Source of the DNA: Spirochaetia bacterium
GTDB lineage: Bacteria > Spirochaetota > Spirochaetia > CAKZLE01
Length of the DNA stretch: 64,000 nucleotides
Reading direction: 5' to 3'
Assembly (NCBI GenBank): GCA_963677595.1
Contig: OY782041.1
Coordinates: forward strand, 96,001-160,000
This document shows positions 47,305 through 53,922 of this stretch, one piece after another. Numbering within the stretch: the first letter of the stretch is position 1; each line of letters begins with the position of its first letter. Below the pieces are notes generated by a model, which made no database searches, was not told where the DNA came from, and worked only from the letters and a program-made list of their open reading frames with translations. Both the position numbers and the translations under genes were made by a program.

Positions 47305-48690
47305 ATGCAGAGACGGATTGCACAGCTGGTGAATGCGGACCCGACCGACGAGACGTTGGAAGTCGAGGGCTGGGTGCGAACGAAACGTGATTCAAAGAAC
47401 TTCTGTTTCTTCGAACTGAACGACGGATCCTGCCTGAAGAACCTTCAGGTGATCCTTGACAAGACTACCTCAGAACTCTCCGAAGTCATAACCCATATTA
47501 CGACGGGGGCGAGCGTCACCTTCTCCGGGAGACTCGTGGAATCCCCGGGGAAAAACCAGAAAGTCGAGCTACAGGCTTCCGGGGTGGTCCTCCACGGAGA
47601 AGCCCCCGCGGATACCTACCCCCTGCAGAAGAAGCGGCACTCACTCGAGTTCCTTAGGGAGATCGCCCACCTGCGGCCGAGAACCAACACGATCAGCGCC
47701 GTTGCCCGGGTACGGAATGCCTTGAGCTATGCGATACACTCCTACTTCCAGGAGCAGGGGTTCATCTATGTCCATACCCCGATCATCTCCGCCTCCGACT
47801 GCGAGGGCGCAGGCGAGATGTTCCAGGTGACCACCCTTCCCCTGGATGGGATCCCCATAGAGGACGGGCTCATCGACTACTCCAAAGACTTCTTCGGGAA
47901 ACCGGCGAACCTCACGGTGAGCGGCCAGCTGGAAGCCGAGATCTACGCACTCGCGATGAAGAACGTCTACACCTTCGGACCTACCTTCCGTGCCGAGAAC
48001 TCGAACACTGCCCGTCACCTTGCCGAGTTCTGGATGATCGAGCCGGAGATGGCATTCTGCACCCTCGAAGGAGACATGGCTGTGGCTGAGGAGTTCCTCA
48101 AGTACATCTTCACCTATGTGCTCGACCATTGTGCCGAGGATATGGCGTTCTTCAACCAGTGGGTACAGAAGGGAGTCGCAGACTCGCTTCGAGAGGTGAT
48201 CGAGAAGCCGTTCGTCCACCTGACCTATACTGATGCGGTGAAGGAGCTGGAAGCAGCAAAAAAGGATTTCGAGTTCCCGATCTCCTGGGGGGCGGACCTC
48301 CAGTCGGAACATGAGAAGTACCTCACCGAGGAGGTCTGCAAGGCTCCTGTCATCGTGACCGACTACCCGAAGGAGATCAAGGCTTTCTACATGAAGCTCA
48401 ATGACGATGGGAAGACCGTACGTGCCATGGACGTCCTCGTACCGCGACTCGGTGAGATCATCGGGGGTAGTGAACGAGAGGCACGCTACGATGTGCTCCT
48501 GCAGCGCCTCGACGAGCTCGGGCTCGAGAAGAAGGACTACTGGTGGTACCTGGACCTGCGAAGGTACGGGTCGGTCCCGCATGCAGGCTTCGGGCTGGGC
48601 TTTGACCGGGTAGTCCAGTACGTCACCGGCATGCAGAACATCAGGGATGTCATCCCCTTCCCGAGGACTGTCCATAACGCTGAGTTCTAG
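47305..48690 (+). CDS. asnS: Asparagine--tRNA ligase
   Basis: [42 protein letters not shown]. Confidence 0.97.
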
Positions 48691-49135
48691 CATTGGACCT
48701 GCTGGCATAGCCCTGAAGGCGTGAGGTGCTCAGCTGGAACAGACTCTGGATCACAGTAATACGGTCATTGCAGATCTGCCCGCCCGTCTGGATATCGTTG
48801 ACCGGCGGGCTGCCGCAAAGGCTCTATGAGCCTTTGCCTCTCCTAACGAGAGATTCTCCTCTCTACCTCCGATTGAAGAGCTTGAAGACTCCCAATGTAA
48901 TGAAGCCGTATCACAACCGCCCCCCCCAACCTGCGGGGTGCATAATGAGCGTACCTATACCTCAATGTTAATATTTTTGCAGGATACTTTTCACTTGAGA
49001 ATCAGAAACAATTTCGCTGCCTTTCGGAGCTACTTTTCGCTCTCTTTGGGAAGAACCTTCTTTCATAGAGGTTCTTAACAGTTTTATAGCTTTACTACTG
49101 CGTACGATAATATCACGAGAAAAGTAGTATGACTG

Positions 49136-49390
49136 TAGTTGAGAAGTCATAGATGCTATCCTATTCTTGACGGAGAATGGGAACCGGTGATCGTGTAATA
49201 CGTTTTTGTGATGGATGCTGGACTGCCAGACATACCTCAAGAGAAAAGATACACTGACCGGTCATCGAAGACTACTTGGAGACTTCCCGGGGAATTCTCC
49301 CCGGGAATGATCTCAATAATAAAAATGAAGGACATCTACGCACTTCCTGTCATAAAGCTTCCCAACTATCCGTTAATTTAATTTTTGAGG
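49136..49390 (+). ncRNA. Candidate IS110 bridge/seek RNA in the left non-coding end
   Basis: Several hairpins downstream of the junction promoter; short segments matching target and donor. Confidence 0.5.
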
Positions 49391-49398
49391 AGGCTGCC

Positions 49399-50568
49399 AT
49401 GATAGACAGACCTTTACGATTGACGGCAACCAGGATCATCGGCTTGGATCTTTCCAAGAAGACTCTGGTTGGGTGTATGCTGCTAGAAGAAGAAGGGTTC
49501 ATGAAGAACCACTTCTTCGACGAGAAGATGAATGCTCAAGGACGTCAGCGACTCGCTGAACGGTTCAAAGCAGGAGATGCGATCTTCATGGAGGGAGGGA
49601 CCTCTTCCTTCAACCTCGCACGGTATCTGCTGAAGCACACCGAAGCAGACGTGTATGTACTCAACCCTATGAAACTGCATATCATCTTCGAGTCGATCTG
49701 CAAGTCAGATCGGCAAGATGCTGCAAAATTGGCTAAGTATGCACGGGATGCCCACCCTGAGAACTGGGTACTGGTTCCCATCCCGACTGAACAGGAATCT
49801 GCTGAGCGCTCAGTAGTCAAGCTTCACATCGCCTATTCTCAGTATCGTACGAAGGTCATCAACAAGCTTCATGCGGTATTCACAGGAATGGGGTTCCCTG
49901 ACCTGAAGAAATCGGATCTGAAGGATCCTCGCAAGCGACGGGACTGGGTGGAGACCCTGCTCGCCGAGGAGATAGCTCTATTCAGTGCAGGGCTCCTGCT
50001 CGAAGAGCTTGAATCATTGGAGTCGCAGATGGAACGTATTCATGAGAAGCTCAAGGAGATCATTCTCGCTCACCCACGAGAAGCCATAGCATGGCTCTCG
50101 ATCCCTGGTATCGGAGACATCACGGCTGTAACGCTCATTGCCTTCCTCGGTAATGGAGACCGATTCTCTTCTGCTAACCAACTGAGGAACTATATCGGTC
50201 TCATCCCGAAGAAGGATCAATCCGGGACGGTCGATAAGCAGCTTGGGGTCTCTCGTCACGGGTGTATGCCGATCAGGAGGCACATCATGCAGGGAGCTTG
50301 GGGTGTCAAAAAGTTCAGACATGATTGTTCTCTTACTCGGTACTGGCAGCGTCTTGAAAGCCGACGGAAGCTTGGTCAGAAAGCATCAGTTGCCATTGCT
50401 AATAAGATGCTCTCTATCGGATTCGCCCTGCTGAAGAACGGTGACATCTATCGGATGCCTGACGGGGAACAGTATCTGTTGAAGAAGCTGCATTACTATA
50501 AACTTGAAGCTCTCGTCGGAACCCGATCCTGGCAGATTAATTCCGATAAGAGCTCCATAACCAGCTAA
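49399..50568 (+). CDS. IS110-family DEDD recombinase/transposase
   Basis: IIGLDLSK, FMEGG, KSDRQDA (DEDD); SIPGIG...YIGLIPKKDQSG (Tnp_20 Ser). Confidence 0.93.
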   Translation: MIDRPLRLTATRIIGLDLSKKTLVGCMLLEEEGFMKNHFFDEKMNAQGRQRLAERFKAGDAIFMEGGTSSFNLARYLLKHTEADVYVLNPMKLHIIFESICKSDRQDAAKLAKYARDAHPENWVLVPIPTEQESAERSVVKLHIAYSQYRTKVINKLHAVFTGMGFPDLKKSDLKDPRKRRDWVETLLAEEIALFSAGLLLEELESLESQMERIHEKLKEIILAHPREAIAWLSIPGIGDITAVTLIAFLGNGDRFSSANQLRNYIGLIPKKDQSGTVDKQLGVSRHGCMPIRRHIMQGAWGVKKFRHDCSLTRYWQRLESRRKLGQKASVAIANKMLSIGFALLKNGDIYRMPDGEQYLLKKLHYYKLEALVGTRSWQINSDKSSITS

Positions 50569-51061
50569 AGCCTTCCTAACGGTTTTAGCCTATCACTAAC
50601 CACCTCCCCACGCAAGTCCTTATTCTTAAGGTCTCGGAGAATTGTGTCTATTTGAATTGCTAAAATTTTCTTGTTTATACCTCTTGACATCTACAGACAA
50701 ATAAATGATGTAGTTGCCATTGTTATACCTCCCATAAAAAGATCGTAATTAAAATATATGATAGCCATTGCATGGTGTCAATTGGATATTCGTTCTCCAA
50801 TAACACCGGTGTCTCGCAAGTTTCAGCACCACCGGGATCAGGGAGATTCCAGCACATGAACAGTACTCTTTGTTTCTTTTATATTGAGTTCTCACAGCAA
50901 TCAATTTACGTATGAGAATCTCAAAGAGTAACCAGGCTTCGGGCTGGGCTTCGACCGTGTCGTCCAGTACGTCACCGGCATGCAGAACATCAGGGACGTC
51001 ATCCCCTTCCCGAGGACTGTCCATAACGCTGAGTTCTAGTAGACGGCGGAGTCCAGTAAAT

Positions 51062-51283
51062 ATAACGAGAGGACAGCATGGGTATCTGGTTCCTCCTCTT
51101 CCTCTGCTGCCATCCCCTTCTCCCCGGACTGTTCGACCAGCCCGGTATCAATGATCACCTGGCAGCATCAGCCGCCAGGTTCCTTATTCTTCTTACCACC
51201 TGTGGGAGGGAAGCAGGCATCTCCTTTACCTCCTGACACCTGCCGTCCTCCCGTTCATGGACTTTCTAACCATTCCTATCCTT
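51062..51283 (-). ncRNA. Structured GGA-rich repeat, copy 1
   Basis: Three hairpins conserved across three copies with G-U and compensatory changes; 12 GGA motifs counted on the minus strand. Confidence 0.55.
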
Positions 51284-51934
51284 CTAGAGGGTGGTCAGCC
51301 CCATACGCAGTGCGTACTTGGTGAGTCCTGCGATCGAGTGCACATCCAGCTTGGACTGGATCTTCTTCCGGTGGACATCTACCGTGCTCACCGAGATGTC
51401 CAACTTGAAGGATATCTCCTTCGAGGTCATGCCCCGACTGAGGAACTGCAGAACCTCCCGTTCTCGCCGGGTGAGCGGGACCGTCGGGAACCTCTGATTC
51501 CCTGCTTTGTAGATCCGTTCTTCCGCGACGTAGGACGGCAGATACACCGCTCCCTCGAACTGCGCCAGCAGCGCCTGCTCGAACTCCTTGAACGATGCCT
51601 TCTCGAAGAGGAATCCGTTGATTCCATGATCATGGTACATGTCGATCATCATCTCATGATGCTCCTCAATGAGGATCATCGTGCGGATCGCGCACCCGGA
51701 GATGGGGCCGTCCTCCTTCCCCAGCAGCTTAAGAAACTGCTTACATCGTGATGCGGTCTCGAGGAGCGCTGAGGATATGATGATGATGGCAGACTGTACA
51801 TTGAGCTGGCTTTCAGCCAATGCATCCAGATCTTCATAGTAGGCGACAACCTGGAATTCTCCAGATTCTTTGATGAGCCTGAACAGCCCTTCACTAAGCA
51901 GTGACCTGCTCTTTATAAAGATAATGTTTTTCAT
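51284..51934 (-). CDS. LuxR-HTH regulator with degenerate receiver domain (copy 1)
   Basis: LTRREREVLQFLSRGMTSKEISFKLDISVSTVDVHRKKIQSKL; no DD or phospho-Asp. Confidence 0.88.
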   Translation of the reverse strand: MKNIIFIKSRSLLSEGLFRLIKESGEFQVVAYYEDLDALAESQLNVQSAIIIISSALLETASRCKQFLKLLGKEDGPISGCAIRTMILIEEHHEMMIDMYHDHGINGFLFEKASFKEFEQALLAQFEGAVYLPSYVAEERIYKAGNQRFPTVPLTRREREVLQFLSRGMTSKEISFKLDISVSTVDVHRKKIQSKLDVHSIAGLTKYALRMGLTTL

Positions 51935-52003
51935 ATTAGTATTAACCTTTTATTTGTTTGATTTGATTTAAAAATTCTGATCGAATCTTTGTTTTTTTAG
52001 GTT

Positions 52004-52222
52004 CATCGGGAAAACAGCGGGTGTATCTTATTCCTCCTCATCCTATGCTGCCATCCCTTCCCTCCGAGCTGGTCGACCAGCCCGGTATCAATGATCACCC
52101 GGCGGCATCAGCCGCCAGGTCCCATATTCTTCTTGCCACCTGTGGGAGGGAGCAGGTATCTCCTTTACCTCCTGACACCTGCTGTCCTCCCGTTCATGGA
52201 TTTTCGAACAATTCCTATTCTT
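52004..52222 (-). ncRNA. Structured GGA-rich repeat, copy 2
   Basis: Homologous to copy 1, same hairpins. Confidence 0.55.
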
Positions 52223-52876
52223 CTAGAGTGTGGCCAGTCCCATGCGCAGTGCGTACATGGTGAGTCCTGCGATCGAGTGAACATCCAGCCTGGACTGGAG
52301 CTTCTTCCGGCAGTTAATGATCGAGGCCTCCGAGAGGTTCAGCTTGGAACCAATCTCCCTCGAGGTCTTGCCCAGGCTGAGGAGCCGCAGCACCTCCTGT
52401 TCTCGCTCGGTGAGCGGGACCATCGGGAACCTCCGGGGTCCTGCTTTGTAGATCCGTTCTTCCGCGACGTAGGACGGTAGGTATACCGCTCCCTCGAACT
52501 GTGCCCGCAGCGCCTGCTCGAACTCCGTGAACGAGACCTTCTCGAAGAGGAATCCCTTGAATCCCTGGGCATGATACATGTCGATCATTACCTCATGCTG
52601 CTCCTTGATGAGGATCATCGTGCGGATCGAGCACCCGGTGATGGGGCTATCCTTCTTCCCCAGTATCTCAACATACTGCTCACAACGTGATACAGTATTG
52701 AGGATCCTTGAAGATATGATGATGTTGATCGGAGAGCGCACATTGTGCCGGCTTTCAGCGAATGCGTCCAGATCTTCATAGTGTGCGATCATCTGGAATT
52801 CTCCAGATGCTTCGAGGAGCCTGAGCAACCCATCACTGAGCAGTCCCCTGCTTTTTATTAAGATTATGTTTTTCAT
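52223..52876 (-). CDS. LuxR-HTH regulator with degenerate receiver domain (copy 2)
   Basis: Paralog with a diverged recognition helix (LNLSEASIINCRKK). Confidence 0.86.
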   Translation of the reverse strand: MKNIILIKSRGLLSDGLLRLLEASGEFQMIAHYEDLDAFAESRHNVRSPINIIISSRILNTVSRCEQYVEILGKKDSPITGCSIRTMILIKEQHEVMIDMYHAQGFKGFLFEKVSFTEFEQALRAQFEGAVYLPSYVAEERIYKAGPRRFPMVPLTEREQEVLRLLSLGKTSREIGSKLNLSEASIINCRKKLQSRLDVHSIAGLTMYALRMGLATL

Positions 52877-52985
52877 ACTGCTAGTAACCAAGTTTTTTTG
52901 TTGTATTTCCTTTTTTGTGTATCCATCAGGGAAACCCATTCCCCGGGGACTCCCTCCGGCTTCCACAGGTATGTGGCAGCCTTTC

Positions 52986-53206
52986 ATAACGGGAAGACAG
53001 CATGGGTATCTGGTTCCTCCTCGTCCCATGCTGCTATTCCCTTCTCTCCAGGCTGTTCGACCAGCCTGGTATCAATGATCACCTGGCGGCTTCAGCCGCC
53101 AGGTTCCGTATCCTGTTGCCGACTGTGGGAGGGAAGCAGGTATCTCTTTTACCTCCTGACACCTGCTGTCCTCCCGCTCGCGGACTTTCGAACAATTCCT
53201 TTTTCT
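52986..53206 (-). ncRNA. Structured GGA-rich repeat, copy 3
   Basis: Homologous to copy 1; A-U replaces G-C in the third hairpin. Confidence 0.55.
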
Positions 53207-53860
53207 CTAGAGTGAGGTCAGCCCCATGCGCAGTGCGTACTTGGTGAGTTCCGCAATCGTGTGCACGTCCAGCTTCGACTGGATCTTCTTCCGATGGACA
53301 TCGACCGTACTTACCGAGATGTCCAGCCTGGAAGATATCGTCCTTGAGGTCATGCCCTGGCTGAGGAACCGCAGTACCTCCTGTTCCCGCTGTGTGAGCG
53401 GGACCATCGGGAACCTCCGGGGCCCTGGTTTGTAGATCCGTTCTTCCGCGACATAAGACGGCAGATATACCGCTCCCTCGAACTGCGCCAGCAGCGCCTG
53501 CTCGAACTCCTTGAACGATGCCTTCTCAAAGAGGAACCCGTTGATTCCCTGTTCATGGTACATGTCGATCATCAACTCGTGATTCTCCTGGATCAGGATC
53601 ATCGTGCGGATAGAGCATCCGGCGAGGGGACCATCCTCCTTCTTCAGCATCTTGAGATACTGCTCACAACGTGATGCGGTATCGAGGATCGCTGAAGATA
53701 TGACGATGATCAGGGGAGAGCGCTCATTGTGCTGGGTTTCAGCCAACGAATCTAGATCTTCATGGTGTGCGACCATCTGGAATTCACCAGATGTCTGGAC
53801 TAGCTCAATTAGTCCCTCCGTTAGGAGTGACTTACTTTTAATTAATAAAAGTTTTTTCAT
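53207..53860 (-). CDS. LuxR-HTH regulator with degenerate receiver domain (copy 3)
   Basis: Paralog of copies 1 and 2. Confidence 0.88.
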   Translation of the reverse strand: MKKLLLIKSKSLLTEGLIELVQTSGEFQMVAHHEDLDSLAETQHNERSPLIIVISSAILDTASRCEQYLKMLKKEDGPLAGCSIRTMILIQENHELMIDMYHEQGINGFLFEKASFKEFEQALLAQFEGAVYLPSYVAEERIYKPGPRRFPMVPLTQREQEVLRFLSQGMTSRTISSRLDISVSTVDVHRKKIQSKLDVHTIAELTKYALRMGLTSL

Positions 53861-53922
53861 ACTACTTATAAACAGGTTTGAGGTGGATTTGATTTAAAAA
53901 AAAAGGGCAATTCTTTATTTTT

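Follow-up and report, generated by a model that had tools for sequence, protein, structure and literature searches.

Three tandem copies of a candidate structured RNA element behind luxR-type genes of a spirochaete: a possible Shine-Dalgarno mimic

The luxR locus and the element

The window analyzed here, a stretch of 64,000 nucleotides (nt) from the Spirochaetia bacterium assembly GCA_963677595.1 (contig OY782041.1, positions 96,001 to 160,000), contains three neighboring minus-strand genes coding for LuxR-type regulators (luxR1, luxR2, and luxR3), each followed by a block of DNA that we call the element (Table 1). The earlier note, made from the letters of the window, had described three homologous non-coding blocks directly behind the luxR stop codons and had interpreted them as an RNA that sequesters CsrA/RsmA. 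Its coordinates were right: the blocks lie at 51062-51283, 52004-52222, and 52986-53206, each starts on the minus strand at the base after the luxR stop, and their pairwise identity is 85.6-88.2%. The conserved core, of about 190 nt, is non-coding. As had also been noted, no open reading frame (ORF) is conserved across the copies on either strand, since single-base indels occur at three places and start codons differ or are lost. The same frameshifting indels and lost starts leave no conserved short hydrophobic ORF, and a type I toxin mRNA was rejected on these grounds. Searches of the 4.33-Mb single-contig genome with blastn, nhmmer, and a covariance model revealed no fourth copy. The alternative held out in the earlier note, a genome-wide miniature inverted-repeat transposable element (MITE) or repetitive extragenic palindrome (REP) unlinked to luxR genes, was discarded: terminal inverted repeats are present (a 21-bp 5'-3' stem including G-U pairs), but there are only three copies, in tandem, and none is dispersed. 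The search of Rfam that had been suggested gave no meaningful match, whether the query was the region or copy 3 by itself. The element is a real, uncatalogued, and narrowly distributed structured RNA candidate.

The LuxR proteins can be aligned with NarL from end to end, and in the family profile alignment the acidic pocket, the phosphorylated Asp, and the conserved Lys of NarL are replaced. Because of these replacements they are not phosphorelay outputs of the GacA/UvrY type, and the analogy with UvrY/GacA control drawn in the earlier note had to be abandoned. The recognition helix of LuxR2 has changed with respect to LuxR1, LuxR3, and all aligned relatives, which suggests that this protein may have acquired a new DNA specificity after duplication. 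No clear Shine-Dalgarno (SD) sequence precedes any of the three genes, and AT-rich boxes lie just before their ATG codons (51935-51960, 52877-52900, and 53861-53885); these two features together indicate that the luxR mRNAs may be leaderless or nearly so.

The origin of this arrangement was traced by comparison with relatives. Orthologues of luxR (39-47% identity) were present in all five family genomes compared, and in these and in one further genome (G056) a single luxR lies tail-to-tail with asnS, and the two stop codons either overlap or are separated by no more than about 10 nt. The element was not found at this orthologous luxR-asnS site in any of the five family relatives or in G056. 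Since the unit junctions retain remnants of the yitT 3' end, the duplicated unit comprised the tail of yitT, AT-rich upstream DNA, luxR, and the element. Units 1 and 2 form the closest pair in both the luxR genes and the elements, and a second assembly (4.36 Mb) also encodes all three luxR paralogues. Next to the locus lies a 2.2-kb insert (48691-50932) with an IS110 sequence, whose boundary is marked by 107 nt duplicated from the 3' end of asnS; on a contig of a second population (run X2, see below) an intact asnS runs straight into copy 1. These comparisons indicate that the element was gained between luxR and the convergent asnS, and that luxR and element were then tandemly triplicated. The link between luxR and the element consequently counts as one gain followed by triplication, and not as three observations, because there was a single tandem duplication event. 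The amplified module of regulator plus RNA proposed in the earlier note therefore stands in that both parts were amplified together, but it reflects this one event and not an ancient pairing. The IS110 of the insert spans approximately 49121-50706 and has five full copies genome-wide, and the same insert holds, directly after asnS, a unique and strongly folding stretch of 270 nt.

Table 1. Features of the luxR locus and candidate anti-SD RNAs (positions in the window, except those marked G000:C1, which lie elsewhere in the genome)
Feature	Position	Strand	Description
luxR1	51284..51934	-	NarL-like regulator, 216 aa, GerE helix-turn-helix; receiver-like domain without phosphorylation residues
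luxR2	52223..52876	-	217 aa from ATG at 52876; diverged recognition helix
luxR3	53207..53860	-	217 aa; adjoins yitT as in most relatives
Element copy 1, core of 192 nt	51064..51255	-	28 nt past luxR1 stop; original position, facing asnS
Element copy 2	52005..52194	-	3' end runs into yitT-derived duplication junction
Element copy 3	52988..53178	-	
Junction of units 3/2	52877..52985	-	about 30 further nt, then yitT 3'-end remnant, AT-rich luxR upstream region
Junction of units 2/1	51935..52003	-	yitT 3'-end remnant and AT-rich luxR upstream region
Displaced 107-nt copy of asnS 3' end	50933..51039	+	96% identical to 48584-48690; convergent with luxR1; marks ancestral luxR-asnS junction
H1 of copy 1	51204..51252	-	16-bp hairpin, 13-nt loop (51222-51234) with SD mimic AGGAGGU, then AAA
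H2 of copy 1	51157..51180	-	10-bp stem, 4-nt loop
H2-H3 linker of copy 1	51146..51156	-	start overlaps strongest predicted duplex with 16S 3' tail (-13.3 kcal/mol)
H3 of copy 1	51124..51145	-	8-bp stem carrying the compensatory pair
H4 of copy 1	51067..51117	-	diverged H1 duplicate, AGGAGG (51092-51097) in predicted loop; weakest helix
3' arm of copy 1	51064..51086	-	alternative partner of 5' arm (51235-51255): 21-bp closing stem
Candidate A	G000:C1 ~784,680-784,775	-	two anti-SD loops, U-tract intrinsic terminator
Candidate B	G000:C1 ~1,653,000-1,653,290	+	promoter-like boxes, small hairpin, anti-SD-loop hairpin
Candidate C	G000:C1 2,077,947-2,078,005	+	anti-SD-loop hairpin right after a stop codon, then terminator-like hairpin; between convergent genes

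Predicted architecture of the element RNA

The three hairpins described in the earlier note (H1, H2, and H3) were recovered on the minus strand, with 100% of cells paired across the three copies. That description lacked a fourth hairpin, H4, and a 21-bp stem, including G-U pairs, that closes the element by joining its 5' and 3' ends. H4 is homologous to H1 (none of 2000 shuffles aligned as well), and in spite of the divergence between the two hairpins AGGAGG occupies all six H1 and H4 loop positions of the three copies, with a predicted mean unpaired probability of 0.26-0.97. Because H4 duplicates H1, the 5' arm has two alternative partners, the near arm of H1 or the 3' end of the element. The closing stem was paired in 95% of cells, compared with 84% for H4, and in constrained folds the closing-stem state and the H1 state were at most 3 kcal/mol apart in every copy. 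H1 formed first in truncated folds, and the H1 state dominated when the full luxR mRNA was folded (84% and 100% in the two copies tested). Minus-strand folding z-scores against dinucleotide shuffles were -4.5, -5.7, and -6.8 for copies 1 to 3, and only one of 242 GC-matched genomic windows folded as stably as copy 1.

The count of 12 GGA motifs in copy 1 given in the earlier note was confirmed, copies 2 and 3 having 12 and 11, whereas the genome averages 5.0 per 222 nt. This enrichment is modest: 0.8-1.8% of random genome windows contain 11-12 GGA, and base shuffles gave p values of 0.01-0.05. Seven of the motifs are common to the three copies, and 4-6 per copy are unpaired in the minimum free energy fold, with GGA present in the loops of H1 and H4. 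The H2-H3 linker, which is invariant among the copies, is also the center of an imperfect inverted repeat (51139-51163 and equivalents), a possible alternative hairpin or DNA-binding dyad; the central base of this repeat is altered by one variant of the second population.

Constraint and strand bias

The number of variable columns among the three copies was compared with that of four-fold sites in the luxR genes (27 of 65). The element varied in 37 of 192 columns, H1-H3 in 21 of 132, and H1 in 5 of 52 (Fisher p = 8e-4, 2e-4, and 1e-4, respectively), and conservation equal to that of the stems was seen in the H2-H3 linker (no variable column among 11) and in the H1 loop (one among 13). All six one-sided changes in the H1-H3 stems produced G-U pairs on the minus strand and none favored the plus strand, as the earlier note had observed for the stem differences; changes in the luxR coding sequences split into 41 of G-U type and 45 of A-C type, without strand bias. 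The p value of the minus-strand G-U bias of the stems was 0.016 among transitions and 1.5e-4 on the full spectrum. The compensatory swap claimed for H3 proved to be genuine, a G-C/A-U exchange, and it was the one two-sided change detected. Taken together, these patterns support the view that the minus strand of the element specifies a structured, non-coding RNA and that selection acts on it.

Further variants came from a second population (sequencing runs X2 and X3, from one sample), in which pieces matching all three luxR-element units were identified; runs X4 and X5 spanned luxR stretches and not the element, and a 205-letter loose end of X4 was set aside because it belonged to a match of 39 nt. 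No RNA run was listed as holding the locus, which carries no information on expression. Its variants in the H1-H3 stems mostly repeated alleles of this genome, one new stem variant converted a G-U into an A-U pair, and none of the listed variants touched the AGGAGG of the loops. The second-population copy at position 3 carried alleles of copies 1 and 2, and the copies look mosaic.

Candidate anti-SD RNAs and their predicted pairing with the H1 loop

The 16S rRNA tail of this organism has an intact, normal anti-SD sequence. Predicted anti-SD sites of -8 kcal/mol or below numbered 5-9 per copy of the element; the mean was 1.8 for the genome and 2.0-3.3 for shuffles. Non-coding DNA was scanned for loops complementary to the element loops, and follow-up of the resulting 122 candidates led to three hairpin elements with UUU(U/A)ACCUCCUUU loops elsewhere in the genome, at 784.7k(-), 1653.2k(+), and 2077.96k(+) (candidates A, B, and C). 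None of them had an Rfam match at the gathering score. Their terminators or G-U pairs assigned all three to the U-rich strand, which is complementary to the strand favored for the element. Two further pattern matches in relatives (L089 and L090) were not anti-SD hairpin elements.

Candidate A occurs in six of six family genomes, counting the one studied here; a stretch of about 88 nt is kept at 91-98% in the five others, with compensatory stem changes. It is a candidate stand-alone anti-SD small RNA (sRNA), better supported than the element itself. Candidate B lies between a gene for an iron-containing dehydrogenase and a probable [FeFe]-hydrogenase maturation operon, which it precedes (gene names by inspection); in the family genome G001 its loop and upstream promoter-like boxes are kept and its stem has changed. 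It is a candidate for a small RNA or a regulatory leader. In the stem of candidate C some short words of H1 recur.

The H1 loop was predicted to form 11 bp with candidates B and C (-15.4 to -15.7 kcal/mol), and it could pair with candidate A with one bulge. The word AGGAGGTAAA occurs seven times among 1,444 genomic AGGAGGT words: three times in the element, twice opposite the loops of B and C, and twice elsewhere. Duplexes between the element and the luxR start regions were long and loose, and were matched by 0.5%, 16%, and 1.5% of the shuffles.

Possible functions of the element

The reading that we prefer, as a tentative one, is that the element is an RNA of the luxR 3' untranslated region (3'UTR) that, by mimicking SD sequences, serves anti-SD small RNAs as a decoy or docking site. 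An SD-like decoy had been the fallback of the earlier note, and this part of it is adopted here as the best reading, though not as a decoy of CsrA. The element would be co-transcribed with luxR by read-through, which fits the failure to find a promoter-like site in 50.9-54.1 kb. H1 would fold first, holding AGGAGG open in the two homologous loops of H1 and H4, and these SD mimics would pair loop-to-loop with the anti-SD loops of the candidate small RNAs. Transcription of luxR could then titrate the small RNAs and relieve their mRNA targets; or the small RNAs could act on the luxR mRNA and control its decay. As the weakest step of this scheme, formation of the closing stem would alter the shape of the H1 loop, and the stem could be a substrate from which RNase III would release a discrete RNA. 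RNase III and Rho are present in the genome, in which Hfq, RNase E/G, and RNase J (by its C-terminal domain model) were not found. No minus-strand terminator-like site was found in 50.9-54.1 kb either, and this leaves the 3' end of the element RNA unexplained.

Several observations weigh against this assignment. The predicted energy of the H1 duplex with B and C ranked 195-626 among 16,782 genomic GGAGG sites (top 1-4%), which is good but not exceptional; with the loops of candidate A, H1 ranked 964-1,447 for one and 9,447 for the other, and the H4 sites ranked 1,703 or worse. Pairing is to be expected between SD mimics and anti-SD loops in general, which leaves just 4 of the 11 paired bases as extra evidence, and convergence of the element and the anti-SD RNAs on an ideal ribosome site could give the same picture. 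Nested co-folding, a model that cannot draw kissing loops, showed no loop-loop pairing, and candidate A is present in five relatives without the element. The structure itself is not free of such points. Covariation, which the earlier note had proposed to test, was not significant among the three copies in shuffle controls (272 and 169 of 500 shuffles were as good), plus-strand folding z-scores were -2.4, -4.2, and -8.0, copy 3 being equally stable on that strand, and H4 pairs are broken at 5 of 15 positions, three of them by A-C. One new variant of the second population breaks an H1 pair. Moreover, the copy-3 element differs between the populations at 23 of 226 bases, compared with 15 of 317 in a luxR stretch; this figure and the mosaic copies make gene conversion likely and the estimate of constraint soft, and possibly inflated. 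Gene conversion accounts less readily for the contrast between stems and linkers and for the G-U bias.

Other readers of purine-rich RNA were considered in place of the anti-SD small RNAs. The one proposed originally, that the element sequesters CsrA/RsmA under the control of a GacA/UvrY-like regulator, has the modest GGA enrichment and the GGA motifs in the H1 and H4 loops in its favor, but CsrA is not there to be sequestered as far as could be determined. The earlier note had named csrA and fliW as genes to look for, and neither was found in this genome (csrA by PF02599; 95.4% complete by markers, one contig), nor was flagellin. The incompleteness of the genome means that the absence of csrA is not proven; a missed gene is unlikely because the absence is family-wide, with PF02599 above its cut-off in none of six family genomes compared with 46 of 55 other genomes of the class. 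PMC7652899 describes CAGGA(U/A/C)G repeats in CsrB and selected CsrA sites that are mostly short stems with 6-nt loops. The element contains no such heptad, and each copy has three ANGGA and 4-6 unpaired GGA; its stems, of 8-16 bp with 13-nt loops, are far longer than these short hexaloop hairpins. The Rfam models of CsrB, CsrC, and Rsm gave no match to the element at E values up to 10, no sensor kinase was recognized among the ORFs of 44-60 kb (by inspection only), and the receiver of the adjoining regulator lacks the residues for phosphorylation. Because no CsrA gene was found in the host, this proposal is very unlikely, scarcely to be credited. A decoy for a purine reader other than CsrA, either the 30S subunit through the 16S anti-SD (in the manner of STAB-SD) or a BpuR-like PUR protein, is improbable, but much less so. 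The intact anti-SD and the excess of predicted sites over the genomic mean agree with it, the genome contains a DUF3276 (PUR-like) gene, and BpuR of Borrelia binds purine-rich RNA with a dissociation constant of 13 nM, according to PMC3764826. On the other hand, STAB-SD is described in PMC4113751 as working by blocking RNase J, whose C-terminal model is unmatched here, and titration of ribosomes by three 3'UTRs would be unlikely.

A purely cis-acting 3'UTR, serving the stability, processing, or termination of the luxR mRNA and its insulation from the convergent asnS, would need no small RNA partner. This is unlikely, though it accounts well for an insertion exactly where the luxR and asnS stops of the relatives overlap or nearly touch, for the presence of RNase III and Rho, and for a closing stem kept in most cells with both states close in energy; species-specific 3'UTRs alter the expression of orthologues in Staphylococcus, as stated in PMC7049690. 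However, no minus-strand terminator-like site was found, and a role in stability leaves the conservation of the H1 loop (1/13) and the H2-H3 linker (0/11) unexplained, whereas bistability may merely follow from the duplication of H1 as H4, the H1 state being in any case dominant in the whole mRNA. Rather less probable is a relic, that is, a MITE-like insert with terminal inverted repeats of 15-21 nt, or the leader and ribosome site of a lost gene, which settled at the 3' end of asnS and was copied as a passenger of the duplication. The lack of the element at the orthologous site in the five relatives and the arrival of the IS110-bearing insert, with its 107-nt duplication, at the same asnS end fit a relic, as do an SD in copy 1 with an ATG 8 nt downstream and a second SD in copies 1 and 3 with an ATG 12 nt downstream. 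Yet no downstream ORF is conserved, the three copies are in tandem with none dispersed, no plasmid, phage, or viral contig matched beyond chance, and the constraint and strand-specific G-U bias indicate a current function. The plus strand could instead encode a repressor with anti-SD loops of the cuckoo or RsaE kind, a fourth member of the anti-SD class of this genome. A core of 10 nt is common to its H1 loop and two of the anti-SD elements, copy 3 folds strongly on that strand, and AT-rich DNA precedes copies 2 and 3. Since none of the six stem changes favors the plus strand, copy 1 is about 23 kcal/mol less stable on it, no promoter-like site was found, and the sole terminator-like match inside an element has 6 bp and occurs in copy 2 only, this is quite improbable, more so than a decoy for 30S or BpuR.

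The wider form of the SD-mimic reading is doubtful: a recent, bistable 3'UTR RNA that mimics ribosome-binding sites would trap a set of undescribed anti-SD small RNAs and would have had its dose tripled when the gene was duplicated, the host being a non-flagellated spirochaete in which CsrA, Hfq, RNase E/G, and RNase J were not found. It would represent a sponge-sRNA circuit at its birth. If the pairing is real, the locus records how a regulatory RNA can arise, by an insert in a convergent junction of zero length, duplication of an internal hairpin, and tandem amplification, and partners would be named for a lineage in which searches for the usual chaperones and nucleases came up empty. Even if the sponge fails, a false CsrA lead has been removed and a family-wide candidate anti-SD small RNA gained. 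All the evidence comes from sequence, and the element is known from one species-level lineage.

Searches beyond this organism and relation to known RNAs

No homologue of the element was found outside this organism and close strains. Searches with blastn gave only two matches of 27-30 nt in 60 relatives and, with two candidates scored per genome, three matches of 28-32 nt in 400 genomes of the class, these three all in long ORFs. The covariance model gave one weak match, inside an ORF, in 150 class genomes. Within the family its best match (E 0.016; G003:C10, minus strand; L064 1501-1676) was rejected as not significant, single-copy, and not found in G005; it is intergenic, with a 26-bp hairpin and an H4-like word, and was treated as chance. 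Plasmids contained one short match, phages none, and viral contigs one chance match and otherwise none. A pattern scan of metagenomes returned four loci, all without the rest of the element, exact patterns being prone to miss diverged forms. Searches of the literature (open papers) retrieved no report of such an RNA in spirochaetes. An integron attC site was discarded by inspection, since its core consensus does not match and luxR is a resident gene, and so was a retron non-coding RNA, the only reverse transcriptase match of the genome lying 3.3 Mb away and being by inspection a group II intron-like protein.

Like the element, the CsrA-binding RNAs CsrB, CsrC, RsmY, and RsmZ combine many GGA motifs (11-12 in about 220 nt in the element), some of them in loops, with an adjoining NarL-fold regulator. 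They differ in that the element occurs in a lineage where CsrA was not found and lacks the CAGGA(U/A/C)G repeats, has no promoter or terminator of its own that could be found, and adjoins a pseudo-receiver protein. The 3'UTRs of icaR and rpiRc in Staphylococcus aureus are also long, lineage-specific extensions of a conserved regulator gene with potential for SD/anti-SD pairing, in a host with RNase III. In icaR the 3'UTR carries an anti-SD that pairs with the gene's own SD, as reported in PMC3868564, whereas the loops of the element are SD-like and its luxR genes lack a clear SD. The cuckoo, alpha-r14, and RSs0680 RNAs, as described in PMC4615179, consist of 2-4 modular hairpins with an SD-related loop motif, in tandem copies behind a gene, an organization shared by the element. 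According to the same source, the cuckoo loops bear the anti-SD CCUCCUCCC in every hairpin, so that the element, on its favored strand, is a mirror image; moreover, its motif is found in two of four loops (none in H2 and H3), and there is no Rfam match. It belongs neither to the cuckoo RNAs nor to RsaI or RosA, which it would resemble in action.

To our knowledge, small-RNA sponges of the RsaI/RosA type are known mainly from Firmicutes. RosA of Bacillus subtilis is reportedly a sponge of C-rich small RNAs of the anti-SD type. In comparison with RsaI and RosA, the element has no sequence or Rfam relation, lies behind a regulator gene instead of forming a free gene, is confined to one species-level lineage, and has two alternative folds, and its pairing is predicted. 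In RsaI of S. aureus, G-tracts in a hairpin bind the C-rich small RNAs RsaG, RsaD, and RsaE, as described in 10.1101/278127. The element likewise shows G-rich tracts from hairpins, with SD-like sequences, predicted to be accessible, in all six of its H1 and H4 loops (AGGAGG), and the same genome contains three candidate C/U-rich small RNA partners with anti-SD loops.

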